Positions 12,679 to 45,595 of a stretch of DNA of 64,000 nt are shown in pieces. Under the pieces are notes generated by a model. It saw only the letters and a program-made list of their open reading frames with translations, was not told the origin of the DNA and made no database searches. How positions within the stretch are numbered: the first letter of the stretch is position 1; the number at the start of each line of letters is the position of its first letter. The stretch comes from a virus (Duplodnaviria > Caudoviricetes). Position numbers and translations under genes: made by a program. The stretch is taken from the IMG/VR virus record IMGVR_UViG_3300020046_005360; one strand, 5' to 3'.

Positions 12679-13636
12679 TATTAATTATTTTAATAATATC
12701 ATCGGAATATAATTCTTCATATTCGTATTTATCTCCGGGACTATATATCTCTATTCTTAATTCCCCTTCTTGTGGATTTTTATCTATTTCTATTACTTCT
12801 CCCGTTTTTTCTCTTAATCCAGTTCCCTCATCAAAAATAAATTTATATTTTTTACCTATTTCTAAATCATTTATATTAACTAAATTTGGATTATTTACTT
12901 TAATTTCGCTAAAAGTAGAGTTTTGGTCTGCTACAGTATATTCTTGTAGTGTTAAATCATATCCTGCACGTAAAGCTTCAGATTGAGCTTGTTTAAAATT
13001 TTGTGGCAGCTCTCCTCCAAAGAAATCTAAGATATGCATATAATCATTAAATTTTTTTAATTGAGGTTGGTTGACTTTGATTTCATTAAGTATACCAACT
13101 AAATTTTCTTTTAATATTCTTAAATCTTCTTTTACTACAGTACGTGAAAATTTATTTCTTATTGATTTTAAATCTTTTACTAATTGGATTAGTTTAGGAC
13201 GTGAATGGAAATCTTTAAGTTGGACTTTTTCAAATTTACTTATTAAGTCAGTTAAATCTTTATGGATAGTAGAATCGTCTACTTCTTTTTTAACACTCCA
13301 TGTTACTGATTGTGTTTCAGGGTCTATATCTGTTACAGTTGTTCTTCTACCACCTGTTTCAGATGATTGACCAATGTTAAAATCGGAAACGTCTTCATTC
13401 AAATCATCATATTCTTTCCCTGTTCTTTGTTTAAATAATTCACGGGCGTATTCACTTACTTCAGATTCATTTTCTACCTCTTCATCCTCAAAATCGTTAC
13501 CTCCTGAAAATTCACCAACTTCATCTAAAGCTTGTCCCCAGCATTCATCAAATATTTTTTCATAATTTAATGGGTTGTTTACTTTTATTTCTGTAATTAT
13601 ACCAGCTAGTTGCTGCAGTCTTTTTATTTCGTTCAT
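12671..13636 (-). CDS. EIKVNxP-module polyprotein (putative internal head protein)
   Basis: [16 protein letters not shown] leader, 3 tag copies. Confidence 0.65.
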   Translation of the reverse strand: MNEIKRLQQLAGIITEIKVNNPLNYEKIFDECWGQALDEVGEFSGGNDFEDEEVENESEVSEYARELFKQRTGKEYDDLNEDVSDFNIGQSSETGGRRTTVTDIDPETQSVTWSVKKEVDDSTIHKDLTDLISKFEKVQLKDFHSRPKLIQLVKDLKSIRNKFSRTVVKEDLRILKENLVGILNEIKVNQPQLKKFNDYMHILDFFGGELPQNFKQAQSEALRAGYDLTLQEYTVADQNSTFSEIKVNNPNLVNINDLEIGKKYKFIFDEGTGLREKTGEVIEIDKNPQEGELRIEIYSPGDKYEYEELYSDDIIKIINNG

Positions 13637-14133
13637 TATATTCTTGTTTCTGTAATTCCTAATTTCTCTGAGCGTGAATAATGCGCAGAAACGATTATAC
13701 TAAGCGATACTCCTGAGTCTTCGACACCGTCACCGACCTTATAAGAATAATCGGGATCTCGACCTGATACTAATTGATTTTCGTCCACATTATCTATTTC
13801 ATAATACTCCTCATTCCACAACATTACATCTCCTATCATAGGAACGACATTAGCTTGTTTTAAATGGTATTTTAAAAAACGTACTGTAAGGGGTCTTGTT
13901 CTATCTTGTCCTTCTTCTCCATCTGTCGTAGCGTAATTACCTCTTTCAATAAGACAGTTTATTAAAACAGGACCAGTAAAAGATTTTTTAAGACTTTCAC
14001 CATATATATTTGTTTCTGATTCTTCTATATTACATAAATAATATCCTACTTTTTGTTCAATAATTTGTCCTAAAAGTTCTTTATTTATGTTATTTATGAA
14101 ATCAGAGTCTCGACTGCGTTCCCAATATGCCAT
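13636..14133 (-). CDS. Neck / head closure protein (gp14-like)
   Basis: NIYGES...[13 protein letters not shown]; next to the gp13-like gene. Confidence 0.65.
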
Positions 14134-14136
14134 AAT

Positions 14137-14427
14137 CTATGTATTTTTAGAATATTCTTCTAATTCGTTATATATAGTTTTTAAAATTTGAGGGTCTAAA
14201 TCAAATATTACCCCCTTATAGCCATCCTCATAGTCTTCCCAATTAAATCCTAGTGGGATATTATCATCAAGTATATCTCTTGCTGCTACATCATAATGAT
14301 CTTCCCCTTCATTAACATATAATTTATTATATAAATCCCATACTTTTTGAGGAGTAATATTTGGATTATTTACTTTAATTTCAGTAATGATACCAGCTAG
14401 TTGTTGTAATCGTTTTATTTCGTTCAT
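14137..14427 (-). CDS. Single-module EIKVNNP protein
   Basis: [22 protein letters not shown] start. Confidence 0.65.
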   Translation of the reverse strand: MNEIKRLQQLAGIITEIKVNNPNITPQKVWDLYNKLYVNEGEDHYDVAARDILDDNIPLGFNWEDYEDGYKGVIFDLDPQILKTIYNELEEYSKNT

Positions 14428-14429
14428 AT

Positions 14430-15611: not shown

Positions 15612-15612
15612 A

Positions 15613-16269
15613 TTATATTATATTTCTTTTTATTTCTCTGTTATACTTACTACATAAAGGTTGAAGGTTAGTATAATGACTTAATTTAATTAATTCTTCC
15701 TCTGTTTTAGCACTACTTATTGGGATTATATGATCTAGATCCCAAGTTTTATTGAATTCTAAAATTCCATCTTTTGGATTACCATAATTTTCTAATTTCA
15801 TCCAAGGTTCGAATTTAGATTCTATATAATCTTTAAAAATAACCCATTCACAACCTAATATTTGATAGGTTCTAGTTTTTTTCGAATATCCCATATTACG
15901 AAAAGACTCATTAATTCTACAAGCAATTCTATTTTTTAATTTAAATAGGGGATCATTATTAGCTCTATTTCTAAAATATTCTCTATCATACTCTTTCTTT
16001 TGGGGTTTTTGGAAAATCCTAATCTCTTTAAGTTCTTCAGAATGTTCTTTATTATATTGATTAGAATATTCTTTTATAGGAACCTCATTAATTTTATTAT
16101 ATTCTTTTCTATTTTCCCATATTTTTTCTTTATTATCTTCTTTATATTGTTTAGCACAAACTTTACATCTACCCGATAATCTATCTTTTTTAGATTTATC
16201 AGAATAAAAATTACTTAATTCTTTATCCTGTTTACAAATAACACATTGTTTCATATAAATAAATATCAT
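15613..16269 (-). CDS. HNH homing endonuclease
   Basis: CxxC...CxxC N-terminus; WDLDHIIP...HYTNLQPL. Confidence 0.8.
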   Translation of the reverse strand: MIFIYMKQCVICKQDKELSNFYSDKSKKDRLSGRCKVCAKQYKEDNKEKIWENRKEYNKINEVPIKEYSNQYNKEHSEELKEIRIFQKPQKKEYDREYFRNRANNDPLFKLKNRIACRINESFRNMGYSKKTRTYQILGCEWVIFKDYIESKFEPWMKLENYGNPKDGILEFNKTWDLDHIIPISSAKTEEELIKLSHYTNLQPLCSKYNREIKRNII

Positions 16270-16409: not shown

Positions 16410-16421
16410 GTTTTATTTTCG

Positions 16422-16430
16422 TATAAATAT
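16422..16430 (-). promoter_or_regulatory. Representative late-promoter-like motif ATATTTATA
   Basis: Recurs in about 18 intergenic gaps just upstream of start codons. Confidence 0.6.
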
Positions 16431-17179: not shown

Positions 17180-17728
17180 TTAATCCAAATAAGTACCTGA
17201 TTTTTCTCTATTATCTTGCTTAGTAAGTGGTTGGGTGTTTTCGAAATGGAAACATAGATACATTTCTTGTTCATCAAGTAAGTTGAATTTGCATATAGGT
17301 TTGATGTGGTCTATTTCCCAGTAGGTACCATAGTTGTCCCAGGACATTTCCGAAGTGAATTTGGATTCGAGGTAGAGAGTGTAGTCACTGATGTTACATC
17401 CCAAATATTGTTCTGTACTTCTGTCCTTACCGTCTTTTAATCCGTTGTATATTCTTACTCTAATAGATTCTTTAAGTCTTACTAGTGGATCTTTACGACG
17501 TTCTCTAGCTCTTTCTGTTAATTTTTGAGTGCGAATTGCTTTCTTTTCAGGTGATAAATTAGCTAGTCTGTCTTTATGATAATTCCCATTATATTTGTTT
17601 TTATTTTGAGTCTTTTGACAAATTTTACAGGGAAAAGTATGACCATTTTTATGTGATGGATGTTTGGATTTATAATACCCATCTAATGAATAGTCGTTCT
17701 TACATTTAGTGCATGTTATTAATTCCAT
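17180..17728 (-). CDS. HNH homing endonuclease
   Basis: CxxC pairs, WEIDHIKP...HFENTQPL; start moved to ATG 17728, downstream of the capsid terminator. Confidence 0.8.
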   Translation of the reverse strand: MELITCTKCKNDYSLDGYYKSKHPSHKNGHTFPCKICQKTQNKNKYNGNYHKDRLANLSPEKKAIRTQKLTERARERRKDPLVRLKESIRVRIYNGLKDGKDRSTEQYLGCNISDYTLYLESKFTSEMSWDNYGTYWEIDHIKPICKFNLLDEQEMYLCFHFENTQPLTKQDNREKSGTYLD

Positions 17729-17745
17729 TTTTATTGGTAATATAC

Positions 17746-17773
17746 AAAAAGAGGCTTGGATATCCAAGCCTCT
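17746..17773 (-). terminator. Terminator after major capsid gene
   Basis: agaggcttgga-ta-tccaagcctct hairpin followed by T run on the minus strand. Confidence 0.75.
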
Positions 17774-17795: not shown

Positions 17796-19436
17796 TTAGA
17801 TTGAGTTCAAGTCTGCGACCAGAATTTTACCATAGAACTCAGGACGAACCATTTTCTTAGCGTATCTTGTCATAATACCTTTCCTAGGTGTAAATGTTTC
17901 AGGATCGTATACTAATGGAGTAGTCATTACTGGAATATATGGTGCATATACAGCTCCAGTTTCCAAGAATTGATTACCTTTGAATCCCATTAATATCGTA
18001 TTCTCAGTCATATATGGGTTTTTGTAAACTTTATAACGAGAATTAATAGCTCCTACTTTTTGTACACCGAATGCGTAAGATGATTTTTCAACACTACCAT
18101 CTGTATCTGCTGCAAATCCGGGGATTGATTCAAGTACAGTAGCAACTGTTGGAGATACTACCATGAAGTTAGCACCACCTCTTAAAGTTTTCTGATGGAT
18201 TGCATTAGAAACTTTTTGCATTTTAATACCTAGTGTTTGGAACCAAGACATTTTAGTGTAATATAAACCTGCGTTATTTACATTTGTAAATCCACTTCCA
18301 GTATAATCTTGACCTACTTTAGCTGACCAATATTCTGTTGTTGGAGCGTTTTGGATTAACATATCCAAGATTTCCATATCAATCTCTAGTGAGATGTATT
18401 CTGACATTAAACCAGTAACCTCAGCCTCAGCATCGATTGATTGGAATGCATTTAAATCTTGAGAGAACTCTGGAGTCCAGCTTGCTTTTAATTTTTTAGT
18501 TTTAGCAGCAATTGTATCAGATTTCATTTGGATATTGAATTCTGGGATAACGATATCTGTTGCAGAAGCAGCATTAGGAATTGAGAATGTACCTGCTGTA
18601 CTATCTTCATAATCACCTCTGTTATTATCTTTAGTTTGTTTATTATATAAAACTGAAGCTGCTGTTAAAGTAACTGAACCAGTATAGTAGAAATCTACTG
18701 TACCTGCAGCTGTTAATCTTGTATAATTTTGTAATAAGTTTACTGGATTAACACCTGAACCTGATACTACAAACGCTCTTACTCCGTTTACATCAAATGA
18801 TGTTAATGAAGAAGTTGCTACTGAAACTTTATAGATTTGACCTGCAGCAATAGAAGCTGATACAGCTGAATCATAATTTACATCTGCTAATGTAAGTGAA
18901 GATGATGCTACAGTTCCTGAAAATACTCCAGAAGCTGATGCTATTGCGAATTGGTTAGTTGAGTAACCAAACTTACCTGCACCATATAAACCACCATCTG
19001 CGTCATTTGAGAAGATATTATTTTGGCTGTTTTTACCATATAATGAATCTCCTGCGTTAAATGGGGATTTTGTGTTACCATATTGGAAATCTAAGAAGAA
19101 GATTAAACCTGCTGGTAAAGACATTGGTTGAACAGAAACGAATTCTTTAGCGGCGATTTGACCAAATACTTTACGTACTAATGGTAATGCAACGGCTGCG
19201 TATTGTTCTCCATTACCTGCTGTGAATGTAGCTCCACCTTGGTTTGTTGTATTGCTCTCTCTTACTAATTGCTTAGCTTGATTTTCTAGCAACTGAGCCA
19301 TGTGTGCTTTTTCTGTGGTATTTTCGATACCTTCTAATAGACCTGATTTGGCCCATTTACCTGCTAATTTCATAGCTCCAGTTAATTGAGCTTGATATGG
19401 ATCTGCAGATTCTAATAATTGTTGTACTACTGACAT
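17796..19436 (-). CDS. Major capsid protein (gp23-like)
   Basis: LLENQ, VSVQPMSLPAGLIF, KLKASWTPE..QDL, YAPYIP, GIMTRY. Confidence 0.96.
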   Translation of the reverse strand: MSVVQQLLESADPYQAQLTGAMKLAGKWAKSGLLEGIENTTEKAHMAQLLENQAKQLVRESNTTNQGGATFTAGNGEQYAAVALPLVRKVFGQIAAKEFVSVQPMSLPAGLIFFLDFQYGNTKSPFNAGDSLYGKNSQNNIFSNDADGGLYGAGKFGYSTNQFAIASASGVFSGTVASSSLTLADVNYDSAVSASIAAGQIYKVSVATSSLTSFDVNGVRAFVVSGSGVNPVNLLQNYTRLTAAGTVDFYYTGSVTLTAASVLYNKQTKDNNRGDYEDSTAGTFSIPNAASATDIVIPEFNIQMKSDTIAAKTKKLKASWTPEFSQDLNAFQSIDAEAEVTGLMSEYISLEIDMEILDMLIQNAPTTEYWSAKVGQDYTGSGFTNVNNAGLYYTKMSWFQTLGIKMQKVSNAIHQKTLRGGANFMVVSPTVATVLESIPGFAADTDGSVEKSSYAFGVQKVGAINSRYKVYKNPYMTENTILMGFKGNQFLETGAVYAPYIPVMTTPLVYDPETFTPRKGIMTRYAKKMVRPEFYGKILVADLNSI

Positions 19437-19462: not shown

Positions 19463-20566
19463 TTATTTTACGATACCAGCTAATTGTTGCATTCTAAGTA
19501 CAAAATCACTTTCTTGTGTTGTTACTTGTTCGTTTAATGCTCTTGGAGAAGAACCCGCTGGTCTTGAAGCGCTTCCTCTGTTTTCTCTTAATTGAGTAGT
19601 TGGCGTTGTGATTAGAGATTCTTTTAATGTTAAGAAAATATTCTTAGTTTCATTAATATTTCTTCCTCTGTCTAATGCATTAACTACTTTTACTTTTTGA
19701 GATTCTGTTAAATTTTTAGCTTTAAATATTTTATTTACATATAAAAGTTTAGAATTTAACAAATTCATTTCATTAAGTGATTTTCTTTGTTCTGCTATCA
19801 CTTTTTTAGCCTCTTGGAGTTCAGTTGATTCTGCTCTTAATGCGGATCCGGCTGCTGATCCTCCTGCGGCTAATTCTGCTTTAATTTTAGCTAATACTTT
19901 AGGTCCGGCTTTTTTGATCATTGCAATGATATTATCTAATCCAGCGGCTGCTGTATTTGCAGGATCAATTGATCCACCACCCATTTCAGATAAAACTTCA
20001 TCTAAATTAATATCTTCTTCTTCACTTTCTTCTGACTCAGGTTCAAATTCTACTTCACCTTCATCTTCAAATTCTCCTTCAGGCTCTTCTTCACTTAATT
20101 CTAGTTGAACTTGACGAATAATATCTTTAAGTTCATCCACTGTAATTTCACCTACAACATCATCACCTTCAGCGTCTTCTTCTAATTCTAAACCTTCTGC
20201 TCTTAGTGCCGTACCTGCTGCTGCTCCTCCTGCTTCTAATTCTTTTTTAATTTTAGCTAAGATACCTGGAGTTTTTGCTGCTGCTCCTTTAATCATTGAG
20301 ATTAAATTATCCAATCCAGCTGCTGCTGCACCAGAAGGTTCTTGCATCGCTTCATCAACGGCTCCTTCTTGTCCTTCTAATTCGTTAAGTAATTCATCTA
20401 AAGATACTTCTGATTCTTCTTCCATTTCATTTAATTGGCTTGAAAGCATACTTTTAATTTGTGGGGCGAACGATTCAGCCATAGCTAATTTAGCATTACT
20501 AAATGCGGTTTCTCTAATTTCTTTTGCTTCTGCTACTGCGTCTGCAAAAAGTTTTGGTTTTGACAT
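19463..20566 (-). CDS. Prohead scaffold/core protein (gp22-like)
   Basis: Acidic, many L-x-E sites, between protease and capsid; ends RMQQLAGIVK. Confidence 0.8.
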   Translation of the reverse strand: MSKPKLFADAVAEAKEIRETAFSNAKLAMAESFAPQIKSMLSSQLNEMEEESEVSLDELLNELEGQEGAVDEAMQEPSGAAAAGLDNLISMIKGAAAKTPGILAKIKKELEAGGAAAGTALRAEGLELEEDAEGDDVVGEITVDELKDIIRQVQLELSEEEPEGEFEDEGEVEFEPESEESEEEDINLDEVLSEMGGGSIDPANTAAAGLDNIIAMIKKAGPKVLAKIKAELAAGGSAAGSALRAESTELQEAKKVIAEQRKSLNEMNLLNSKLLYVNKIFKAKNLTESQKVKVVNALDRGRNINETKNIFLTLKESLITTPTTQLRENRGSASRPAGSSPRALNEQVTTQESDFVLRMQQLAGIVK

Positions 20567-20761: not shown

Positions 20762-21382
20762 TTATCTTAAGCAGCACATTCCTGTCTGAGAGCAAACAAT
20801 TTCTGATATTATTTCGTTTAATTTATCGTATTTAGAATTAGTTTTTGGTATATAATTTTCATTAAGACCTAAAGGTTTAACGAATGCTCCTTGTGTTGAT
20901 GGTTCTGATACTATATCCCAACAAACTAAAGAAAGGTCGTCTTGAACTTCTACAGTACCTTCACCTAAACTTTGCACTGAACCCATAGCTCTAGATGATA
21001 TACCTATTTGCACTCCACCTTTTACTAATGCTTTTACTATATTACCTGAAGGGGTGTCTAATATTAAAAGCTTAGCTTTTACATCATCTCCATCCCACCA
21101 AACCTCTGTTATTCTGTGGCAAACGTTTTTTAAATTGACAACTTGACTATCAGGGTGATCTAATTCTCCTGTTGCTCTATTTTCAACAACGGGACCATTT
21201 TTATAGTTTTCAATTTCTCTTTCAAGTATATTTTTGGGGTAAATCCTTCCATTTTGATTTTTAGCATCAGCACGTTGAATAATACCTTCAAGAATTAAAT
21301 CACCACTATTATGTTTAATACTCTCATTAATAGATTTAGGGTCGAGTTTAAGTGGAAAGTGTTCTATTAATAATTGCTTCAT
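20762..21382 (-). CDS. Prohead core protease (gp21-like)
   Basis: NQNGRIYP, GELDHP, GISSRAMGS, DIVSEPS. Confidence 0.93.
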   Translation of the reverse strand: MKQLLIEHFPLKLDPKSINESIKHNSGDLILEGIIQRADAKNQNGRIYPKNILEREIENYKNGPVVENRATGELDHPDSQVVNLKNVCHRITEVWWDGDDVKAKLLILDTPSGNIVKALVKGGVQIGISSRAMGSVQSLGEGTVEVQDDLSLVCWDIVSEPSTQGAFVKPLGLNENYIPKTNSKYDKLNEIISEIVCSQTGMCCLR

Positions 21383-22620: not shown

Positions 22621-23615
22621 TTATTTTTGGTTTATTATTTTATTCAAATCTGAAATTAAATCTTTTTTATCTTGATTATCTAATTCTTCCCACCATTGTC
22701 CTTGGTCTGCAAAAGTAGGGTACCCATACATTTCGAGAGTATTATCAGTTTCTTTTTCACTTACTTTATCCCCATCATCATTAATTTACGTAAATCCTCA
22801 AGTTCTAAAGTGACTATATTAGGGTTATTTATTTTTATCTCGTTTATTTTAGAAATATTTGAAAATGCTTCTTTTAGTTTATTCTGAATTTTATATAATG
22901 AATCTTTAGTACGTTTTAGATATTCTATTTCCTGATCATTTTCCTGTAATTCACCTTTAATACGAGTAGTAAATTCAATAAGACGATTTACTTCATCTAA
23001 TTTTAATTGTATCTCTTTTATCGCGCGATGAAGGATTTCTCTTGGTTTAGGTTTAGAAGTAGATTTTTTAAATTGGGTGTAACGAGATTCTGATAGTGTA
23101 TTTTTTATTTGTAATGATTTGTTATTTTGTTGTAACCAATTTAATATCTTATTAACATCATTGGATTCGAATTCTGGTTCTGTTGTATAATCGTCTCCCG
23201 GTTTATTGAAATCGTAAATCTCAAATTCTCCATCAAATTGGTTTAAATCTTTATATCTTCTTATGACAATATTATCTTCTAAAAATATTTCACCTTGATC
23301 TTTTAGATTTAAAATAGCGTCTTTTAATTCTTGATTATTTGGATTATTAATTTTGATTTCTTCCAAATGTTCTCCTTTCCACAAATCTTTACTATTTAAT
23401 CTATCTTTAGGGTCAACTATTTTAAACTTCATAGTTTTAGTATACATGTTTGGTTTAGGAGATGATTCGAATCCTGTTGGTGAGTTTTTATCTTTTTTGG
23501 TTGGTTTACGGAATGCTTTTTTAGTTAAATACCCTCCTGCGTCACCTGATGTAGATGTCTCTAGTAATTCACGGCAGTAGGCCTTGATTGAGGATTTTAA
23601 AATTTTATTATCCAC
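22621..23615 (-). CDS. Head-associated protein with two EIKINNP modules; last module frameshifted near 22785
   Basis: ORF 22761..23615 plus a -1 frame continuing to TAA at 22621, abutting the next ATG. Confidence 0.6.
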
Positions 23616-26420: not shown

Positions 26421-29201
26421 TTAGCCTAATAACCAGGTTAAGTCTTCTACACCCCCATGTCCATCTTGCATGCGATATGGATTTTGTTCATATGGATTAT
26501 TATATACAGCAGGAGTAGCATAATTTACACTTGTGAAACCATTTAATACTGCTCTCGATAATTCTTCACTTTGTTTTTGATACATTAGTGTTGTTTCTCT
26601 CAAGAATAAAAATATTCCAATAGGTAAAACTAAGTCATCATTATGACCTTGTTGTGCTTGTGGTCTACCATTTTTATATATAAATGTTCTAATCTCTTCT
26701 AATGCACGTTTTGAAAATATATCAACTGAATATTCGTTCATATACGAAATTAGTTTTGAGATGACAAGTGGTCTTGTCTTTTGGGTCATAGAAAATCCAG
26801 GAACCATACCTACATTACTATTATACTTAGATAAATATTGCTCCGAATCAATAGGGTTGTCTATTTTTGGAGAATAATATAAGTTTTTATATTCTTTGTC
26901 TATCATTCTACCTACAACGTCCCATCCTATACTTGCATTTTCGATAACACACAAAGCGTTATTCCATTCAACACAAGCTGCATGTATAACATTAGCAAAA
27001 TCTTTAGTAGGTAATTGAGATTTAAATTCAGCTACTTGACGACATAATTCTATATCAAAAACATGGAATGTAGAACTGTCTGCTCCATCTCCACGAGCAA
27101 CATCGGCAATAAGTGCGTAAGATCGAGAATAATCAGGTATTTCAAATATCCAATATTCTCCATTTAACCCTCTACGTTCAAGAGGTTCTCGTGCTATATT
27201 TTTAGTATAATAATTTAATACATCAGTATCGATGACCGATTCACCACTCGTGATGAAATCTGCGTCACAATTATGTACTATACCATACTCTGTTACATAA
27301 GTGTGTGTATTTTCAACTTCAAAATTATATACTTGTATTTTTTCTGATGAAGGATTTAATTGTAATATAGTTAATGGAATCCCATTATCAATCATAAATT
27401 TAGTAGTCTTTCTATTATTAACTACTGTATTATAATTTTTTATTCTCTTACTAAATATTTTTTCATTCGAATCAATCTTAGTATTACTATAAGTTAATAT
27501 AGTACTATTTTTACATTGATATTCTTTTCCTAATATAATATTAGTACCTTCTTTTTTATTTATTGATATTGTTGTATTATATAACCCCAACAAATTACTT
27601 ATATATAAAGAATCATACACTAGTCTTTCAGATGTTAAACCTAATTTACAATTGTAATCAGATTTTAACATTCCATCTCCAACCATTATACCATCAAGTA
27701 TACCTTTTAGAGTTTCTTTATTACTATTTTCCCATACAAAAGAACTTATATGTTTATCTTGACAATATTTTCCTCCATCAATACATAACTCTATGAATTT
27801 AAGAAATATTTGGTTTTTAACATATAAATTAGCTCCTTTATCTCGTTTACTAAGGTAATGAGAAAATATACTTATATTAAACTTTTTATTAATATAATTT
27901 TGTAATATTAAAGGCCATGAATGTTCTTCACTCTCTGTTTCTCCATTATACGAAAATGAAACTACATTATTCCAATAACTACCTTCAGATAAAAAACAAC
28001 CTATAATAAAACCTAATTCATAATCAAATTCTATATGTCGATGTACGTAAGATTTTTTATTAATCCAAATTGATTCATCATTAGATTTTAGAGGAAAATA
28101 TTGTGGATTATTAACTTTGATATAATCTAATAAATCTATTTTGGAAGGATTATCATACTGATTTATGTTAGTTGGAAATAACTGTATATATTGATTATGA
28201 TCATATATACTTTCAACTGTAGTCCATTTATTAACAATGTTTAAGAAAGGATGATTACCTGTTGTATATTTTTGAATATTATTAATCCCATTTTTGATTT
28301 CATATAAATTGTTTTCCTCTATATGATTAAATGTTTTTAATACCTTATTAAAAGTTCCATCATGACTTAATACTATATCTCCTTCTTGGATGTCTTTAAT
28401 ATATTTAGGTCCTAATTTTGTATACACAATTGTATCTCCTGAGAAACATTCTTGTGCTGCATGTTTTACACCTAAATCTCTATCTTGTTGGTCTCTCCAA
28501 GTTTGGTCTCGTTCTGGATGGACAGTCCAAGGAAGTAAAAGTGGAACAAAACTGTTTAATTTCTCTTGTGCTTTGGTAAATTCTTTATAAAACCAATTAC
28601 CCGTTCCATTTGGTGATGATAATGCGATACAAGAACCCCCAGTAGCTAGGGTTTGTTGAGCACCAGTAAAGATTCTTTCAATATTATCAATAAATGCGGC
28701 CTCATCTATTACAAGTAAAGTAACGGCTTCAGATCTTGATGCATTATCAGTTGCGGGTTTAGCTTGTATTTGAGAACCGTTTACTAACTTAAGTAATAAT
28801 TTATTATTCTCTGTATCTTTTAATCTTAACCAAGATGGAAGTTGATCGTATGAAAATCGTACTTTAGTAATTAAGTTTTTCGCTGTATCTTGCGTAGTAG
28901 CTAATACAAGAATATTCTTATCCTTATGGAATAACATTAACCAAAGTGAGAAAGCAGAAACTAGGGTTGATATACCTAGCTGCCTCGATTTATTAATTAT
29001 ACTCCACTCCCCCTTTTGAAAACGCCTTAATAGTGTTTCTTGGAATGGATATAGATTAAATAACATCCTACCTCGTTGTGGATGTTGTATATAATAATAT
29101 TTTTTACAGAAGTATACAGGGTCACTGGCACATTTATAAAATTCGTCTTTAACTAATTCCTTAAATGATTTTTGTGGTATTATATTTTCTTCTTGTGCCA
29201 T
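26421..29201 (-). CDS. Terminase large subunit (gp17-like), intein-containing
   Basis: KSRQLGIST Walker A, LLVIDEAAF Walker B, SSPNG, DVARGDG, HNDDLV. Confidence 0.95.
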   Translation of the reverse strand: MAQEENIIPQKSFKELVKDEFYKCASDPVYFCKKYYYIQHPQRGRMLFNLYPFQETLLRRFQKGEWSIINKSRQLGISTLVSAFSLWLMLFHKDKNILVLATTQDTAKNLITKVRFSYDQLPSWLRLKDTENNKLLLKLVNGSQIQAKPATDNASRSEAVTLLVIDEAAFIDNIERIFTGAQQTLATGGSCIALSSPNGTGNWFYKEFTKAQEKLNSFVPLLLPWTVHPERDQTWRDQQDRDLGVKHAAQECFSGDTIVYTKLGPKYIKDIQEGDIVLSHDGTFNKVLKTFNHIEENNLYEIKNGINNIQKYTTGNHPFLNIVNKWTTVESIYDHNQYIQLFPTNINQYDNPSKIDLLDYIKVNNPQYFPLKSNDESIWINKKSYVHRHIEFDYELGFIIGCFLSEGSYWNNVVSFSYNGETESEEHSWPLILQNYINKKFNISIFSHYLSKRDKGANLYVKNQIFLKFIELCIDGGKYCQDKHISSFVWENSNKETLKGILDGIMVGDGMLKSDYNCKLGLTSERLVYDSLYISNLLGLYNTTISINKKEGTNIILGKEYQCKNSTILTYSNTKIDSNEKIFSKRIKNYNTVVNNRKTTKFMIDNGIPLTILQLNPSSEKIQVYNFEVENTHTYVTEYGIVHNCDADFITSGESVIDTDVLNYYTKNIAREPLERRGLNGEYWIFEIPDYSRSYALIADVARGDGADSSTFHVFDIELCRQVAEFKSQLPTKDFANVIHAACVEWNNALCVIENASIGWDVVGRMIDKEYKNLYYSPKIDNPIDSEQYLSKYNSNVGMVPGFSMTQKTRPLVISKLISYMNEYSVDIFSKRALEEIRTFIYKNGRPQAQQGHNDDLVLPIGIFLFLRETTLMYQKQSEELSRAVLNGFTSVNYATPAVYNNPYEQNPYRMQDGHGGVEDLTWLLG
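27270..28448 (-). mobile_element. Intein (393 aa) with LAGLIDADG endonuclease
   Basis: Begins CFSGDT, TGNHPF block B, IGCFLSEG and DGIMVGDG motifs, ends VYNFEV...VHN followed by extein Cys. Confidence 0.93.
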
Positions 29202-30097
29202 TACTCTTTATATTTTTCTATTCTATAATTATTATATTTACCATCTATGGAATTAATACAACGTTTAATATTCCATTCACTAATACCTAAACTTCTAATA
29301 TCTTTTAAATTTTTGAATATATGTATATTATTTTCTATATAAACTTTATAACCACATTTTCTTTTTATCTTTGGTATATTATTGTTTTTATCATAAATAT
29401 CATTAGCGTATGCAAATCTAAAATTTTTTATTTTTTGATATTTTCCAGTACAACAATCTCCAATTCCACTAGATCCTATACCTAACTCATTACTAGCTTC
29501 TGTAGTTGAGTTAAATTTTTTAATAAAATTCCAATCTAAATCAAATTGAATTACTTCATTACTAGATTTACCTGTTAATATATAATCACATTCCAAAGGA
29601 TCATTTGAATGTCTCCAAATAAAATCTCCACTAGTCTTATAAATTTTATTACAACAATTAGCTATATTACCTCTATCTATTTTTAATTTAATAGAAGCAT
29701 CTAATATACTCTCCCATTCTTTAATAAAATTACCTTCTAAATCATATTGTAATACAGGTTTATTTCTTTTTCCAATATTATTTTCCTTTATAATATTTTT
29801 AGTTAATTCAGAATGAAATTCAGGACCGCTTCCACCTTTCTTTCTAACATTCATTATTTCAAATCCTAAAAATCTAAAATAATTAATCCAAAATGTTTCT
29901 AGAGGTTCCCAGTCTTCACGACTTAGAGAGTTAACTTCATCTATGTAATCATAATTTATATTTTGACCATAAGTTTTCTTATGATCATTTTTTCTTGAAC
30001 CTTTTGTTTTACCTATATAAATTTTATTTGGATTACCAAAACAATTTGTAACTAGGTAAATTTTTGTAATTTGAGAGGAAGATGTTATATTTATCAT
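29201..30097 (-). CDS. GIY-YIG homing endonuclease with NUMOD1-like repeats
   Basis: KIYLV...IYIGKT; VLQYDLEGNFIKEWES repeats. Confidence 0.8.
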   Translation of the reverse strand: MINITSSSQITKIYLVTNCFGNPNKIYIGKTKGSRKNDHKKTYGQNINYDYIDEVNSLSREDWEPLETFWINYFRFLGFEIMNVRKKGGSGPEFHSELTKNIIKENNIGKRNKPVLQYDLEGNFIKEWESILDASIKLKIDRGNIANCCNKIYKTSGDFIWRHSNDPLECDYILTGKSSNEVIQFDLDWNFIKKFNSTTEASNELGIGSSGIGDCCTGKYQKIKNFRFAYANDIYDKNNNIPKIKRKCGYKVYIENNIHIFKNLKDIRSLGISEWNIKRCINSIDGKYNNYRIEKYKE

Positions 30098-31698: not shown

Positions 31699-32319
31699 TT
31701 AAAGGTTGATTATTTCTAGCAATTGTTTAACTCTTCTTGGTTTGATATAATTAATTATAAGATCATAGTATTCTTTTTCCACAGGATGGCAATAACTAGC
31801 TGCTTTATTTCTATTATCTTCAGTAAATAAAGGTTGTAAGTTTCTTAAATCATTAATTAATATTAGAGGAGTATCTAATTTAAACCATGTTATAGGGATT
31901 TTATGATCTATTTCAATAGTATTCCAATTCATATTTTCTATAAATAAGTTTTCTATATAATCCTTTATGATTTTATATTCTTCTTTACCATGACCATTTT
32001 GGAATCTATTTTTTAAATTATGAAATAAATTTCTTATTTTATATGAAGGATTATTTATTCTATATTTAATTTGAGCTTCTTTTACTTTATCTGGGTTATC
32101 TTTGTTCCATTTTTTATTAACTTCTTTAAATCTTTCTAAATTATTACATTTCCAATTTTTATTTCTAATATGGAATGTTTCTTTATTATTATTATAATAA
32201 TTCTTATCAATCTCCTTTTTACATAGTCTACAGACATATGATTTCCCATCAGGAGAAGAAGTTTTATTAGTAAAATTAATTAATTCTTTATTTTCTTTAC
32301 ACTTATTACAATATTTCAT
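31699..32319 (-). CDS. HNH homing endonuclease
   Basis: CxxC pairs; IEIDHKIP...NLQPL. Confidence 0.75.
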   Translation of the reverse strand: MKYCNKCKENKELINFTNKTSSPDGKSYVCRLCKKEIDKNYYNNNKETFHIRNKNWKCNNLERFKEVNKKWNKDNPDKVKEAQIKYRINNPSYKIRNLFHNLKNRFQNGHGKEEYKIIKDYIENLFIENMNWNTIEIDHKIPITWFKLDTPLILINDLRNLQPLFTEDNRNKAASYCHPVEKEYYDLIINYIKPRRVKQLLEIINL

Positions 32320-37190: not shown

Positions 37191-37193
37191 TGT

Positions 37194-37512: not shown

Positions 37513-39381
37513 TTAAATATTTTTTATATTAATAATATCATCTTTAGAAATGGTTAAATAATGATCATTATCATCATCATCTTCATTATTCATATTAATA
37601 TTTCGATTCCCAACAATAGCAGGTTTAGAATACGGATTTAGTTCATTGGGCGTTTTATTAACTATTATTAATTTTTCCATATTACCATTTTTTATTTTGA
37701 AACTATATACATCTCCTATCTTTAAATTTTCGAATTTAATTGATTCAGGATTGTTTACTTTTATTTCATCAATCCCTTCTTGATCATAATCATCAGCTTT
37801 TAAATCGAAAGATATATCTTTTAATGTAGAGTCAACCCATCTTTTTTGTTTTGGAGATAATTCTTCATTAATAGCGTTTTCTACGAAATCTATAAAATCA
37901 CCATCTTCAAGTTGATATACTTCGGAAAAGAAGAATTCTCGTATACGAGGATCAGAGTGTGGTGAGTCTGCAAAAATATCATTTAATGCATCAAAAATAT
38001 GTTTACCAAACTTAATATCATGCAACTCATTTGATAAGGTATCTACTTTATCTACAACTCCTTGATTAGCTTCTTTATCACCTTTAAAACCTTGTAATGA
38101 AACTAATTCATATAAACCTTTAATTATTTCATGAACTAACATTGGAAAACAAATAGCGCGAGCACGAATTGTTATACCGGATTCTTGTTGTTCGTTTAGT
38201 CTATCTAATTCATTTTTTATCCATTCAGGATTATTTAATTTTTCTCCTTGTTTTTGGATAATTTTTTGTTTATATTTTTTTGAATAACAAGGAGTATTAT
38301 CTATAGCTTTATTAAATACATTAATGGTATTTTCATAGTCTTTAGTGTATTTAGGAGTTAATAATTTTTGAATGAATTGTTTTAATTTATCTTTATTCCA
38401 ATCTTCTAATCCATTAAATCCCAAAGATCCACCCCAATGAGAAAAATCATTTGCCATATTATAAACATTATCTTCTTTATCATATATATTATCCCCATTC
38501 ATGCTTAATATATTATTCTTAAGCATTTTAAATAATATAGGATTTTGTTTTAAAAAATCAACCCAAGATTCATCAAAAAAACATTCTAATATTAATTTAG
38601 GTTGTTTTACTTTTATCTCATTAATAATAACTTTACTTGAACCCCCAGCAGCTTTATGACCTTGAGCTAATAAAGATAATAACATTGCTATAGCATTATC
38701 ATCATCATAAATCCCAAATGAATTTTTCATTATTTGGTTATATTTGTCTATAAGAGTAGGGTCGATTGCGTCAAGATAATCTTTAAATAGATAGAATGAG
38801 AAAGCACCACGTAGTGCTGCACCTTGAGTAATTCCATTTATTATACGGCGACGAGATTCAGGGGATATTTCTTCGTTTATAAAGGGAATAAATTCTTTTA
38901 ATCTAGATGTTGGATTTTTTTTAATTAGATTTAAAATCCTCTCTGAAGGTATGTCTCCTAATATATTTTGTGTTTCTTCAACAAAATGAAGTATCCATTC
39001 TTTTTCTCTACCTTTAATAGGTCTTCCTCCTTTACTTGATAATTTTATAAATGTATTTAAAATATCACCATCAGAAATAGGTTTGTTTATTTTTATTTCA
39101 TCCAATTCTGAATGAATATCGCTCATTGGAACAATTTTAGCATCCAACTTTATCCCCTCTTCTTCAACAATAGGATATAAATCTTCTATCATTTGAATAG
39201 CAAGTTGTTCTAATTGATCTTTATATGGAGCTTCTGCCTTAGAGATGTCATCCAATAATTCTTGTGATTGAATCATTGTTTGCATAAGTGTTTTATCACC
39301 AAGCATCGATTTAAGATTTTCTTGGGATTTTTTATTTAGCTTAGCTAGGGTTGAGGGCTTAAATATTTGATTATACTCCAT
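37513..39381 (-). CDS. Protein interrupted by EIK modules (3 tags)
   Basis: RRRIINGITQGAA and FPMLVHEIIKG segments separated by tagged inserts. Confidence 0.65.
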   Translation of the reverse strand: MEYNQIFKPSTLAKLNKKSQENLKSMLGDKTLMQTMIQSQELLDDISKAEAPYKDQLEQLAIQMIEDLYPIVEEEGIKLDAKIVPMSDIHSELDEIKINKPISDGDILNTFIKLSSKGGRPIKGREKEWILHFVEETQNILGDIPSERILNLIKKNPTSRLKEFIPFINEEISPESRRRIINGITQGAALRGAFSFYLFKDYLDAIDPTLIDKYNQIMKNSFGIYDDDNAIAMLLSLLAQGHKAAGGSSKVIINEIKVKQPKLILECFFDESWVDFLKQNPILFKMLKNNILSMNGDNIYDKEDNVYNMANDFSHWGGSLGFNGLEDWNKDKLKQFIQKLLTPKYTKDYENTINVFNKAIDNTPCYSKKYKQKIIQKQGEKLNNPEWIKNELDRLNEQQESGITIRARAICFPMLVHEIIKGLYELVSLQGFKGDKEANQGVVDKVDTLSNELHDIKFGKHIFDALNDIFADSPHSDPRIREFFFSEVYQLEDGDFIDFVENAINEELSPKQKRWVDSTLKDISFDLKADDYDQEGIDEIKVNNPESIKFENLKIGDVYSFKIKNGNMEKLIIVNKTPNELNPYSKPAIVGNRNINMNNEDDDDNDHYLTISKDDIINIKNI

Positions 39382-39642: not shown

Positions 39643-41193
39643 TTATTTGTTTAATAAAATTTCTAAGTCTTTATATAATTGTGTTTTCTCTTCTTGATCT
39701 AAAATATTAAAAATTTTTTCATTTTTGATTGGATTTAAAAATACACCCTCACTAAAACCATATTTATTTCCTAATTCTTCAAGTTCTTCATCTATCTCAG
39801 GAAACGTGTCATTTTCTTCAAAATAATCTTCAATTTTATTATGTAATGAATTATATAAATCCATAAGTTTTTTAGAATCAATTAATGGATTATTTATCTT
39901 TATTTCCGAAAGTATTCCAGCTAATTGTTGTAATCTTTTTATTTCGTTCATTGTATTTAAATTATTTTTTTCTAAATATAGAATACCATTTTTTTCTTTA
40001 ACATTATAATGACCCCAACTATTTTTTTCAATATATTGTTTATAGGTATTATTTCTTTTTTTATGAATATCACTAGGGATATCACGATCAGGATAATTTA
40101 TAATTATAACATTTGGGTCATATTTACTAAAATATTTTTTAGCAACATTAAAAACATTATTTAATATTTTTAAATATAATTGTATATTAGATTGTTCTCC
40201 AGTATTTCTTAATTTGGTAGTACCATATTCTTCATTAACAGAAAAAGATAATATACCAACTTTTTGAAATTTTTCGGGTATTTCATCTTTTAAATCTTCA
40301 TAAAAATGTTTGTCTCCAGTCATTAAATTTTGTAAATGAGTTCCATATATTTTATCTATATATTCAAATGATACTGTAGGATTTACAGATAAAATAACTT
40401 CTATAGTATTACCATCTACAGTAAATGTTGATTTAGTAGTATTAGATACATCCTCAAATGCTTGTGTTTGTTTTTCATCTGTAGGATTTAATTCTTGGTT
40501 TATTTTTATTTCTCTTAAAAATGGGTCGATCTTGTACTTCTTACCGTCCATATGAAGTGTCTTTAAACCATCCAAATTTAACATTCTGTAGCCCTTAGGA
40601 CCATTTCCAATTTTAAGGTCGTATACGGGAACAAGTCCTTTATCTTTGGGACTATATGGAAGTTCTCCACCAGACGTATACTTGCGCACACCTGTAAGGC
40701 CATTCATTGCGCGTAGTGATCCGTCTCCTCGTTTAGTGAATACAGCTTGGAATATTTTTCCTTTAAAGGAAAGTAATTCACGTGCTTGTTCTTTACTTAT
40801 AGTAGTATACTCGGCTTGTTTTTTCTCTATTTCTGGAGAAATAGGTTCATCTGGAACAGGTATAGTTTCAGGGGCTACTTCTACATCAGGTTCAACTGTA
40901 ATTTCTTCTTCATCACTCTTTGGGATAAGTTCGTCGTCTGAAATTTTTATATTTTCCGGTTCTTCTTTAGGAACAGGAATAGTTTCAGGTTCTAATTCTA
41001 CATCCTCTTCGTCTTTGTCTTTGTCTTTGTCTTTGTCCTCATCTTGTTCATTAAGACCTTGTGGAAATGTCTTTTTGTAATCTAAAACAGCTATTCTCTC
41101 CTTAATAACTCCATCGATATATTTTTTATCCCATTTTTTGTTTTGGGGATCTTGAAGGAGAATGTTTGATATGTCGGAAATTTTTATACTCAT
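39643..41193 (-). CDS. Multidomain protein: acidic repeat, SH3/WYL-like domain, two EIK modules
   Basis: FTKRGDGSLRAM...VYDL...GYRML; internal [14 protein letters not shown]. Confidence 0.6.
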   Translation of the reverse strand: MSIKISDISNILLQDPQNKKWDKKYIDGVIKERIAVLDYKKTFPQGLNEQDEDKDKDKDKDEEDVELEPETIPVPKEEPENIKISDDELIPKSDEEEITVEPDVEVAPETIPVPDEPISPEIEKKQAEYTTISKEQARELLSFKGKIFQAVFTKRGDGSLRAMNGLTGVRKYTSGGELPYSPKDKGLVPVYDLKIGNGPKGYRMLNLDGLKTLHMDGKKYKIDPFLREIKINQELNPTDEKQTQAFEDVSNTTKSTFTVDGNTIEVILSVNPTVSFEYIDKIYGTHLQNLMTGDKHFYEDLKDEIPEKFQKVGILSFSVNEEYGTTKLRNTGEQSNIQLYLKILNNVFNVAKKYFSKYDPNVIIINYPDRDIPSDIHKKRNNTYKQYIEKNSWGHYNVKEKNGILYLEKNNLNTMNEIKRLQQLAGILSEIKINNPLIDSKKLMDLYNSLHNKIEDYFEENDTFPEIDEELEELGNKYGFSEGVFLNPIKNEKIFNILDQEEKTQLYKDLEILLNK

Positions 41194-41194
41194 T

Positions 41195-41488
41195 TTATTT
41201 TGATGGAGTTATTTTTGTTAATTCATCTTCCCAAAATTCTATTATATTACCACCATCTTCTTCATCCCAATCATCTTCAAAACCATTTGGATCCATTTTA
41301 AAAAATGCAGACTTATTATTTTCAACAGGATTATAACCATCAAATTCAACCCCAGTTTCTGATATATTTTCTCCTTCCAAATCATATTTTTCTCCTAATC
41401 TTAAATTAGAGAATTTTACGTTTGGATTATTTACTTTAATTTCAGTTAATATGTCAGCTAGTTGTTGTAATCTTTGTATTTCGTTCAT
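41195..41488 (-). CDS. Single-module EIKVNNP protein
   Basis: MNEIQRLQQLADILTEIKVNNP start. Confidence 0.65.
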   Translation of the reverse strand: MNEIQRLQQLADILTEIKVNNPNVKFSNLRLGEKYDLEGENISETGVEFDGYNPVENNKSAFFKMDPNGFEDDWDEEDGGNIIEFWEDELTKITPSK

Positions 41489-42792: not shown

Positions 42793-42794
42793 AT

Positions 42795-43472
42795 TTAAGC
42801 TATTAATTGTTTTACTTCATCAATACCTTCTACGGCTGATTTAAATATTTTCTTCCATTCAAAGTCATATAAACCACAAGGTTCCGGATTTAGATAAATT
42901 ATATTTTTATTATATTGAGTTATATTTGCTGATGGGTATACTTGTAGACTAGAACCTATTATAATTAGATGGTTTGATTTTCTAACTATATTTTTATATA
43001 GATGTGGTATATCTACTGGTAGTTGTTCTTCAAAAAGAACTGTGTTATGTCTAAGTTGTTCTTTGGTTATTGGATGTAAATCTCCTTCTTTAATATCTTC
43101 ATTCCATTCATATGGGTTGTCTTTATTCCAATCACAAACTTCAAAAACATTTCCATGTAAATGAATTACATTAGTACTACCAGCCCTTTCATGTAAGTTA
43201 TCTATATTTGTTGTAATAACAGTAACATCATGGTCTTTTTCTAATTCAGCTATAACTTTATGAGCGTAATTAGGTTCACAAGTTGAAATTAATTTTCTAG
43301 CATCATTATGGAAGTCAAGAACTTGAGTTAAAGCTATATCCAATCCTCTTCTTGATGCAACTAAGTTAACATCATATTTACTCCATAAACTATCTTCACT
43401 ACCGCGAAAAGTTGGAATCCCACTTTCCTGTGAAATTCCAGCTCCGGTGAAGAATATTATTTTTTTCCTCAT
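42795..43472 (-). CDS. Sir2/CobB-family NAD-dependent deacylase
   Basis: TGAGISQESGIPTFRG, TTNIDNLHERAG, HLHG, IGSSLQVYP. Confidence 0.92.
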   Translation of the reverse strand: MRKKIIFFTGAGISQESGIPTFRGSEDSLWSKYDVNLVASRRGLDIALTQVLDFHNDARKLISTCEPNYAHKVIAELEKDHDVTVITTNIDNLHERAGSTNVIHLHGNVFEVCDWNKDNPYEWNEDIKEGDLHPITKEQLRHNTVLFEEQLPVDIPHLYKNIVRKSNHLIIIGSSLQVYPSANITQYNKNIIYLNPEPCGLYDFEWKKIFKSAVEGIDEVKQLIA

Positions 43473-43475
43473 ATT

Positions 43476-44813
43476 TTATTTGTTAATTAAAAGTATTTCA
43501 GGTCCCATTTCTTTAATTTGAATTTGTGGATATTTTTCTTTACAAATTTCAGCACATTTTAAAAATATTCTACGTCTATATTCACTTATAGGGTGGAGTT
43601 TTATTAGTTGTGGTGTTTTATTTATCAAATATTTTGGGATTATTTCATCTCTAATGATTTTACATATAGTATTAGACCTCATTTCATCTTTTCCACCTAC
43701 CAACCCATCCTCAGGATTAATACTTCCAATCATTTTATCATAATCGTAAACTTCTATCCATTCTCCTTTTTTATTTTTTAAAACAAAATAAGATTCTATA
43801 TATTTAGATGAAGGATCAAAACTAACTTCTAATTTATTTCCATACTTATCCTCGAAACCCCAATGATTACTAATGTCTTCAGAATAATTATAAGCCATAT
43901 CAGGATCGGCAAGTTCCATAAATATTTCAGTGTCCGTATGAGATATAGAATCAGACTCATTTAAACCGATACATTCTTTTTGTATTCTAGCTTCAATTAA
44001 ATTTTTCTTTCTAAAAATAGAAGAATCTTTATTTTCTCTTATTATTCTAAACCTAATTGGTTTCTTTACTTGTACTTCTTTATCTTCTTGTAATTCAGCT
44101 TCCTCTTCTTCAGGAGCTTCTTCATTAGGTACTTCTGAAGTATCAACACCATCTAAATCTAAATTTTCGTCCCCAGGTTCCGCTGTCATATCTTGGACAA
44201 ATTGGTCCTTCATGTCGGTCTCGTTTTCAATCTCTTCACCAGGACCTGCACTACCAGGAGGTAGTCCTTGTAGTAATAGGTTTGATATAGCTTTTATAGC
44301 ATATTCTTCATCTTTTAAGTTCATTAAATGATAAACTTTTCCAGACACTTTTGCCATATAAGCTTTTGGGTTATAAATTAAGAGAAAATTACGTCCGTTA
44401 TGTAAAAGTATTTTAAATGTAGTTGGTTTGGGGCTTACAACAAATATACTTGTTATATAATCTTTATACACAGGAGACATTAAGTCTGTAAGTGTAGCTT
44501 CGAGTGAAGGATATTTTTGAAGAATATATTCGGTTGGATCTTTTTCAAATTCAAGTGTTTCTTGTCTTTGATTCTCAATAGCGTTATCTATCTCTTCTCT
44601 AAGTATGCTTTTTAAATCCATTTCTTGAATAATTTTACTACCAATTTTTAATATACCTTTATAAGATTTAGGTTGTTTAGTTGAACCATCATTTTCTTTG
44701 AACCAACCCCAACCATCATTTTGGTGATGATTTTGCCAATAAAGTTTATCTCCATTTTTGAAGGTAACTAAATCTCCGAAATTTAATTTTGGTGGAGTAT
44801 ATTTTTTACCCAT
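43476..44813 (-). CDS. Multidomain hypothetical (putative internal head protein)
   Basis: ILREE, LQE, IRE, LIE, LNE sites dividing segments; PKPTTFKILL domain. Confidence 0.6.
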   Translation of the reverse strand: MGKKYTPPKLNFGDLVTFKNGDKLYWQNHHQNDGWGWFKENDGSTKQPKSYKGILKIGSKIIQEMDLKSILREEIDNAIENQRQETLEFEKDPTEYILQKYPSLEATLTDLMSPVYKDYITSIFVVSPKPTTFKILLHNGRNFLLIYNPKAYMAKVSGKVYHLMNLKDEEYAIKAISNLLLQGLPPGSAGPGEEIENETDMKDQFVQDMTAEPGDENLDLDGVDTSEVPNEEAPEEEEAELQEDKEVQVKKPIRFRIIRENKDSSIFRKKNLIEARIQKECIGLNESDSISHTDTEIFMELADPDMAYNYSEDISNHWGFEDKYGNKLEVSFDPSSKYIESYFVLKNKKGEWIEVYDYDKMIGSINPEDGLVGGKDEMRSNTICKIIRDEIIPKYLINKTPQLIKLHPISEYRRRIFLKCAEICKEKYPQIQIKEMGPEILLINK

Positions 44814-45595
44814 TATCTTAGATCTAATTTATCTTTAGGAATTTTGATAAATTTTAATTCATCATCCCCAGTGATTTCATAAGGAATATTATGTTTATCT
44901 AACAAAGAAGTTAATTTATCCATTTGTTCTTGTTCTACTTCCCTATCTTCTTCCTCTTCAAATAAAAATTCCATTTTTATGAATCCAGGTTCATCAACAT
45001 AAGGTTCAGTACCCCACCAAGTTTCCCCATCTTTGGATAATGAAACTACTTTTAGTTCTCCATCATCATCATCTTCATCATAATCAAATTGAATTTTTCC
45101 AGGTGAGTTTACTTTTATTTCACTAAAAGTAGAATTTTGATCTGCTACAGTATATTCTTGTAATGTTAAATCATACCCAGAACGCAATGCTTCTGCTTGG
45201 GCTTGTTTGTAACTTTGAGGTAATTCTCCTCCAAAAAAATCTAATATATGCATGTAATCATTAAACTTTTTTAATTGGGGTTGATTTACTCTTATTTCAC
45301 TCTGAATTCCAGCTAATTCCTGCATACGATCTACTTCACCTCCATATACAGGTTTTTCTCCACGAATAATTCGTGCTACGTTTTCAGGATCAGCTCTATC
45401 TAATACTTTATTTCCACGAGCAACTTGATCTTCATCTTCAGTTACTTCAATATCACCATTAGCTATTCTTAATAATATTTTATCCAATGTATCTTTAGTT
45501 AAACCTTTTGTTGTACCTCCTGGAGCGTAGCGTGAATAACCTTTTTCTTCCAATAGTACTTCTTTAATTATATTTCTTAAATGCAATTTTTTCAT
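44813..45595 (-). CDS. EIKVNxP-module protein
   Basis: RMQELAGIQSEIRVNQP; shares a 66-aa cassette with 12671..13636. Confidence 0.65.
   Translation of the reverse strand: MKKLHLRNIIKEVLLEEKGYSRYAPGGTTKGLTKDTLDKILLRIANGDIEVTEDEDQVARGNKVLDRADPENVARIIRGEKPVYGGEVDRMQELAGIQSEIRVNQPQLKKFNDYMHILDFFGGELPQSYKQAQAEALRSGYDLTLQEYTVADQNSTFSEIKVNSPGKIQFDYDEDDDDGELKVVSLSKDGETWWGTEPYVDEPGFIKMEFLFEEEEDREVEQEQMDKLTSLLDKHNIPYEITGDDELKFIKIPKDKLDLR

Follow-up and report, generated by a model that had tools for sequence, protein, structure and literature searches.

The 64,000-nt stretch examined here (hereafter, the window) is part of the IMG/VR virus record IMGVR_UViG_3300020046_005360 (Duplodnaviria; Caudoviricetes). 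It encodes a gp23-family capsid protein, a Peptidase_S77 protease, a portal, a large terminase and a tail sheath and, judged from its genes, it derives from an uncultured, distant T4-type myovirus. Two of its genes, named A and B (Table 1), carry the same in-frame cassette, a 52-residue body bounded on either side by a conserved heptapeptide, the tag. Other genes of the window also carry tags, and the carrier genes are located between the structural and the nucleotide-metabolism genes of the T4-like phage genome. From the pair of cassettes, an earlier sequence-only reading had proposed that the tag-bounded module is the unit of exchange. The genomes of co-circulating relatives show that modules have been gained or lost, have acquired new partners and have changed order, the breakpoints falling on the tags, so that every module has a history of its own.

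The cassette in genes A and B

The two copies of the cassette align without any gap over 198 nt and, in a codon-by-codon comparison, are identical at 164 of the 198 nucleotides and at 60 of the 66 residues, 22 codons differing by synonymous changes only and six by non-synonymous ones. This bears out the sequence-only reading, which had described one 66-residue module with 60 identical residues and many synonymous changes. Its statement that the similarity begins and ends at the tags and that the flanks differ holds for the most part: the 60 nt flanking the copies share 43% identity upstream and 38% downstream, no similarity between genes A and B is found downstream of the second tag, and the comparison of the pair and its flanks gives no homology extending well beyond the tags. 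It fails on one side, as a weak L-[AV]-G-I-x-x-E likeness, which is a degenerate form of the RLQQLAGI leader motif described below, reaches 5–8 residues upstream of the first tag. In a BLASTP search among the window's own open reading frames (ORFs), genes A and B match each other with E=1.4e-40, and the only other link is a short leader-like motif.

The ratio of non-synonymous to synonymous divergence (dN/dS), which had been proposed as a check, ranges from 0.026 (NG86) to 0.086 (LWL85), with a dS of 0.65–1.9; by these estimates, the within-genome pair is old and both copies are under strong purifying selection. The pair had also been taken as direct evidence that the module is the unit of exchange. 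Exchange is supported by the relatives, but taken by itself the pair proves less than was claimed, since homology ending at domain borders is expected of any shared domain.

When modelled by AlphaFold2 with an alignment of homologues, the cassette body reaches a predicted local distance difference test (pLDDT) value of about 90, with the order strand-helix-helix-strand-helix, and both tags remain below 60. According to this model, the body is a real, independently folding 52-residue alpha/beta domain. The model of the full-length gene B product has a mean pLDDT of 60.9 and only its C-module is confident, so that it lends weak support to the location of the tags in low-confidence segments. An exhaustive profile-free search retrieved the body in gene A-type and gene B-type proteins and also, devoid of tags, at the N-termini of proteins from other, more distant T4-like phages; one of these tagless proteins adjoins gp13, the same neighbourhood as that of gene A. 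A search of the ESM Atlas with the cassette gave no usable feature match (TM score <0.5). A Sigma70_r1_1 match on the N-domain of gene B was below the cut-off and was disregarded.

Exchange among relatives

An N-domain followed by a tag is common to all 31 metagenomic homologues of gene B (tag at residues 67–104, mostly near residue 100), and at least 17 unrelated module families are found behind it. The cassette lies between the N-domain F0 and the module F2 in the window, F3 in the relative L002 or F4 in the relative L009, and cassette-less F0-F2, F0-F3 and F0-F4 proteins also exist. One of them, P0003 from L001, is gene B minus exactly the cassette. Its C-module is identical to that of the window at 307 of 309 nt and its N-domain at 77%, and its single tag is a hybrid that combines the EIR of the upstream window tag with the VNSP of the downstream one. 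P0005 and P0008 are a second pair differing by the cassette only; in this pair as in P0002/P0003, the C-modules are 99% identical and the N-domains 79–86%. Likewise, in the fish and mouse-gut metagenomes of two further studies, contigs run from position 45107 directly to position 45285, skipping 177 nt with a 6-nt ambiguous overlap, and show 0 differences from the window on the C side versus 28 in 189 nt on the N side; in all, three samples yield contigs with such a tag-to-tag join. The cassette itself is identical at 175–176 of 177 nt among the window, L002 and L009, the N-domains of which are 76–87% identical. Between the window and L002, a near-perfect stretch runs from 9 nt before the first tag to the seventh base of the second one, where homology ends. 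An assembly chimera was rejected, as the cassette-bearing and the cassette-less forms each recur in independent assemblies. None of four public runs covers the gene B cassette at ≥85% likeness, a result that carries no information on its absence. In L009, the 62-residue module that begins the gene next to gene B in the window is followed by a tag (IQE-IKINEP) and by a different body.

In the gene A family, a conserved core domain is accompanied by modules that vary: A1 stands ahead of the core in the window and behind it in L007, and the cassette precedes the core in L005. The homology of gene A with L007 and L025 ends on the tag located upstream of the cassette. The comparison of orthologous loci suggested by the sequence-only reading thus finds the cassette gained or lost from tag to tag, identity stepping at the tags and an order of modules that varies among related genomes. 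The same reading attributed the exchange to recombination at the microhomology of the tags; the hybrid tag and the 6-nt junction overlap fit this proposal, but it is indistinguishable here from selection acting on random junctions.

Over the whole window, 9 of the 16 downstream ends of syntenic homology blocks with L002 or L007 fall within 8 nt of a tag (chance per end 0.02, binomial P=4e-12), as opposed to 0 of the 17 upstream ends; the tag therefore marks the switch from conserved sequence to variable module. Where a replaced segment ends on its far side, there is either another tag, the end of a gene or a further x-E junction, for example the I-Q-E that precedes MDLKS in the gene next to gene B. 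Alignment of the relatives places several crossovers inside the 21-nt tag itself.

Immediately after tags of three further genes of the window (22761-23615, 37513-39381 and 41195-41488, all on the minus strand) lie weak relatives (28–47% identity) of F3 (12671-12886), the C-terminal module of gene A, so that reuse within the genome extends to other module families.

Table 1. Genes, cassettes, tags and associated features of the window
Feature	Position	Strand	Description
Gene A	12671..13636	minus	321 aa, P0001; 16-aa leader, tag, module A1, core domain 'Amid', tag, cassette, tag, C-terminal module F3
Cassette copy A	12887..13084	minus, in frame	Tag + 52-residue body + tag, within gene A
Tag EIKVNQP	13064..13084	minus	Upstream of cassette A; point at which homology to L007 and L025 stops
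Tag EIKVNNP	12887..12907	minus	Downstream of cassette A
Tag EIKVNNP	13571..13591	minus	Closes N-terminal leader of gene A
Gene B	44813..45595	minus	260 aa, P0002; N-domain F0 (ends RMQELAGIQSE), tag, cassette, tag, C-terminal module F2
Cassette copy B	45101..45298	minus, in frame	Within gene B
Tag EIRVNQP	45278..45298	minus	Upstream of cassette B
Tag EIKVNSP	45101..45121	minus	Downstream of cassette B; breakpoint versus L002; junction in cassette-less forms (L001, two public runs)
N-terminal 62-aa module of next gene (43476-44813)	44628..44813	minus	Ends I-Q-E; co-varies with F2; far end of the segment replaced between window and L002
959-aa multi-module protein	51440..54319	minus	Four tags; L002 homology lost at two (53732, 52115)
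622-aa protein	37513..39381	minus	Three tags; L002 homology lost at two (39080, 38612)
Prohead protease, Peptidase_S77 (T4 gp21 family)	20762..21382	minus	PF03420, E=3.3e-33; candidate tag-reading enzyme
Putative scaffold protein	19463..20566	minus	Ends RMQQLAGIVK, resembling the leader motif ahead of many tags

A probable peptide signal and its alternatives

With the looser peptide pattern E-I-[K/R]-[V/I]-N-x-P, the tag is found in 22 copies in 11 minus-strand ORFs of the window; a degenerate DNA pattern finds 20 copies, all in frame on the coding (minus) strand, where 0.01 is expected by chance. The fuller form of the tag is [I/L/V/F]-x-E followed by I-K-[V/I]-N-x-P, the P3 residue being I, L, V or F in 21 of the 22 tags, and L-x-E or I-x-E is also kept at the end of junctions devoid of IKVNxP, as seen ahead of DVSDF and MDLKS. 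In DNA, the tags are in-frame direct repeats, the first 14 nt of which are nearly identical (near-perfect cores of 13–14 nt), and with the RLQQLAGI helix in front of the tag, the stretch of shared DNA reaches about 66–85 nt at 80–92% identity. The mean pairwise nucleotide identity of the tags (80.0%) is close to that simulated from the codon usage of the genome (79.4 ± 1.1%, P=0.28). The synonymous positions thus vary as codon usage predicts, which argues that selection acts on the peptide of the tag and not on its DNA.

Valine in the tag is encoded by GTA in 15 of 17 copies; GTT, which represents 41% of the Val codons of the window, is never used there, and the other codons of the tag follow genome usage.

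The same 16-residue leader, directly followed by the tag, begins four ORFs and the same unit is internal in the ORF 39643-41193. Its pattern, MNEI(K/Q)RLQQLA(G/D)I..(T/S)E, corresponds to a shared N-terminal propeptide ending in an L/I-x-E-type motif and carried by otherwise unrelated proteins; a related sequence, RMQELAGIQSE, stands ahead of the first tag of gene B. The more distant relative L005 harbours a variant tag, E-I-T-I-N-x-P, in several genes, and this lineage-wide covariation suggests one shared reader of the motif. In L005 (594-10486), (L)SE-ITINxP is present in at least three genes behind differing leaders (MDI.K....FLLSE), and the scaffold still ends in RMQKLAGLL; it would thus seem that tag and reader change together from lineage to lineage, and that the leader is not always a copy of the end of the scaffold. 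Elsewhere in IMG/VR, a 132-kb contig bears nine tags, all on one strand, and a scan of the database with one exact tag variant retrieved only 14 stretches. The tag pattern is absent from the genome of the nearest cultured relative, Flavobacterium phage immuto.

Three ORFs of 45–48 aa (50759-50902, 55001-55147 and 55147-55284, minus strand) start with MK[VI]NNPN, i.e., with a tag in which Met replaces the Ile that follows the presumed cut. Genes of 45 and 48 aa syntenic to two of them (55001-55284) are called in L002. These micro-ORFs suggest that the KVNNP segment also works within the mature module itself.

The best overall explanation, which is considered probable, combines strings of small modules, a tag that is likely a gp21-type cleavage signal and exchange at the tags. 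It can be viewed as follows. Many proteins of the lineage would be strings of small, independently folding modules separated by the conserved heptapeptide. Owing to the strong AT codon bias, the copies of the tag would be about 80% identical in DNA and would double as short direct repeats in frame. Through replication slippage or short-homology recombination from one tag to another, a cassette would be precisely excised or inserted, recombination between tags of different genes or of co-infecting phages would swap the downstream part, and selection would keep only the in-frame, tag-preserving products. In T4-type phages, repeats of this kind can most simply yield precise excision, insertion and downstream replacement through short-homology recombination or replication slippage. 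The tag would therefore not be a recombination site in origin: it would be kept for its function as a peptide, and recombination would exploit it. How the crossovers arise is inferred, and selection for intact junctions must also contribute.

As to this peptide function, the tag is most likely an extended cleavage site for the gp21-family (S77) prohead protease of the phage; if it is cleaved, the carrier proteins would be polyproteins, the modules of which are released inside the capsid, and the RLQQLAGI helix that precedes many tags would act like a capsid-targeting propeptide. Such a site in packaged polyproteins is proposed because of the [ILVF]-x-E before the tags, the L/I-x-E at tagless junctions, the I-T-E end of the leader and its scaffold-like sequence, the presence of an S77 protease and the predicted flexibility of the tags. 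In T4, L/I-x-E is the site after which gp21 cuts, and diverse internal proteins are loaded into the prohead by a capsid-targeting sequence (CTS) of 10 N-terminal residues (PMC9026906, PMC3012670). By this likeness, the tags probably mark cleavage points in packaged cargo polyproteins.

Several observations weigh against this explanation. Past the cut, the gp21 sites of T4 show no conserved residues (PMC9026906), so that the invariant IKVNxP needs further explanation. The capsid protein has no full tag, and gene B is located among non-structural genes (phosphoesterase, RNA ligase, SIR2) and not in the head module. At the DNA level, the tags show no conservation beyond that due to coding, and 21 nt at about 80% identity are a poor substrate for recombination; the far ends of the replaced segments are often not at tags, and selection on random junctions could yield the same pattern of breakpoints. 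Furthermore, Pfam and PHROG searches with genes A, B and other tag proteins gave no family for the cassette or for genes A and B, a Foldseek search of the cassette against the PDB found nothing (best E=5), and the best VIA-align hits of the cassette, winged-helix-like domains (Z=3.6), are too weak for use.

With respect to the tag itself, the alternative is an uncleaved linker with a structural or docking role, such as a strand for the binding of a common partner, the modules staying joined and exchange proceeding as described above. Such a linker would suit the six invariant residues after the Glu, which have no counterpart in known gp21 sites (PMC9026906), as well as the MK[VI]NNPN start of the three micro-ORFs and the location of gene B outside the head gene cluster. 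It is nevertheless rather unlikely, as the [ILVF]-x-E is kept in 21 of the 22 tags and at junctions lacking IKVNxP, an S77 protease is encoded, the 16-aa N-terminal leader ending in I-T-E parallels the T4 CTS and the tags are predicted to be flexible.

With respect to the exchange, the tags might promote nothing and selection might act as the only filter: illegitimate junctions would form at random, and only the in-frame products that rebuild a linker or a cleavage site would survive. The DNA of the tags, which is no more alike than the peptide and codon usage require, the junction overlap of 6 nt only and the distal ends of the replaced segments, which are not at tags, all agree with this view. 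As a complete account, it is unlikely: at least three independent crossovers lie inside the 21-nt tag, where that side offered no other homology, and the tags are direct repeats with near-perfect cores of 13–14 nt. Repeats of this kind are typical endpoints of T4 deletions. The selection filter and tag-promoted recombination are not mutually exclusive.

An ordinary ancient sharing, by which genes A and B would have inherited one domain, the sharp borders being domain borders and no exchange being ongoing, would account for the high dS between the copies (0.65–1.9). It is very improbable, being contradicted by the presence/absence polymorphism of the cassette next to 99% identical modules, by 99% identical cassettes in diverged carriers and by the variable order of modules. 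Finally, a mobile element or site-specific system acting on DNA, with tags as target-site duplications or as recombinase or homing-endonuclease sites, can be given next to no credit: direct repeats do flank the cassette and three NUMOD-type homing endonucleases are encoded in the window, but 6 of 21 positions differ between the two tags that flank the cassette, drift is free at synonymous positions and the 22 in-frame tag sites are mostly without this cassette and all on the coding strand; target-site duplication and site-specific recombination were both rejected as readings of the cassette.

Starting from the gp21-type signal with exchange at the tags, a more far-reaching proposal can be made, which is tentative and somewhat doubtful as a whole. 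The phage would possess a polymorphic cargo system, in which dozens of small effector domains would be carried in polyproteins, loaded into the prohead by a helix that mimics the C-terminus of the scaffold, freed at E|IKVNxP by the prohead protease, delivered to the host with the DNA and swapped cassette-wise between co-infecting phages at the tag. This would be a viral counterpart of the bacterial polymorphic toxins, driven by the arms race with host defences. If the tags are protease and loading signals, capsid targeting as known from the single N-terminal propeptides of T4 would be broadened to polyproteins with several modules and gain a conceptual link to the evolution of polymorphic toxins, and a processing site would have been turned into a plug-and-play interface for evolving the repertoire of injected proteins, with exchange events visible at nucleotide resolution in environmental data. 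The tag would also be a natural portable signal, testable for the loading of foreign proteins into T4-like capsids, and the modules would form a catalogue of small domains that are candidate early-acting host-takeover or anti-defence factors.

Related systems and other genes of the phage

The closest functional analogue is the CTS/internal-protein system of T4, and the closest evolutionary analogue is the VENN-demarcated cdiA-CT cassette. As in the T4 system, where the CTS is found on IPI, IPII, IPIII and Alt and is processed by gp21, a gp21-family protease and a gp23-family capsid protein are encoded, a short shared leader ending in I-x-E heads otherwise unrelated small proteins, and the protein that follows the signal varies greatly from relative to relative (PMC9026906, PMC3012670). 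Unlike in T4, the signal is also internal, with up to four copies per protein giving multi-module polyproteins, six conserved residues follow the presumed cut, and the breakpoints of exchange map to the signal at nucleotide resolution; compared with T4, packaging and cleavage are inferred here. No sequence homology of genes A and B with the T4 internal proteins or the CTS was found using Pfam and PHROG, nor did a tblastn search of gene B against 50,697 phage records return any match.

For CdiA and its orphan cdiA-CT modules, homology between loci runs from one sequence coding for the VENN motif to the next one, and deletions fuse new modules to the carrier (PMC3150448), as is also seen here. 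In CdiA and in Rhs tips, as here, a conserved short peptide motif divides a conserved carrier from a variable downstream part, with an abrupt divergence after the motif. Unlike CdiA and Rhs, the proteins described here belong to a phage and are not secreted bacterial effectors (of type V, VI or VII secretion systems; T5SS/T6SS/T7SS). No immunity-gene partners were identified, no systematic search for them having been made, and the modules are domains of 50–100 residues without a recognizable toxin fold, several of which are strung per protein; no toxin family was found among the modules examined by Pfam and PHROG. In phage mosaicism more generally (tail fibres, PeSL regulatory cassettes of T4-type phages), recombination at short conserved sequences moves modules between genomes. 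Unlike in PeSL and general mosaicism, the junctions are here intragenic, in frame and set by a peptide signal present more than 20 times per genome, instead of lying at an intergenic promoter/stem-loop. In the giant phages phiKZ and SPN3US, a gp21-related protease that cuts after x-x-E processes many proteins inside the head (PMC9026906, PMC5694885); for such head and ejection proteins, the literature found describes neither a conserved tag on the prime side nor cassette shuffling at the cut sites. More broadly, literature searches turned up neither a tag of this kind nor an exchange of cassettes at the sites of prohead proteases.

The gp23-family capsid protein of the window is encoded at 17796-19436 (PF07068, E=1.5e-72), and the closest cultured relatives of the phage are Flavobacterium phage immuto (53% capsid-protein identity) and Microcystis phage Mel-JY01. 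Several studies yielded pieces near-identical to the locus 44300-46100, in metagenomes of wastewater, air, fish and mouse gut, so that the host is probably a widespread water-associated bacterium; Flavobacteria are suggested by the nearest cultured phage only.

Other genes of the window display features of their own. The 959-aa four-tag protein (51440-54319) opens with a cytidylyl/NMN-adenylyltransferase-like domain and contains DUF5661, the C-terminal end of which coincides with a tag. A SIR2-family gene (42795-43472, minus strand) is located near the gene of this protein, and together the two suggest that an NAD-related function may be carried as a tagged module. In the large terminase (26421-29201, minus strand; 926 aa), an insert shows a weak similarity to an intein splicing domain, at an E of 4e-5 that falls short of the Pfam cut-off. 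Paralogous homing endonucleases with a NUMOD domain are scattered in the window (29201-30097, 57125-57859, 48205-48696 and 47978-48205, minus strand), their N-terminal parts being 45–64% identical. Lastly, three other paralogues sharing about 30% identity (15613-16269, 17180-17767 and 31699-32319, minus strand) are present, two of which flank the PhoH and capsid genes.

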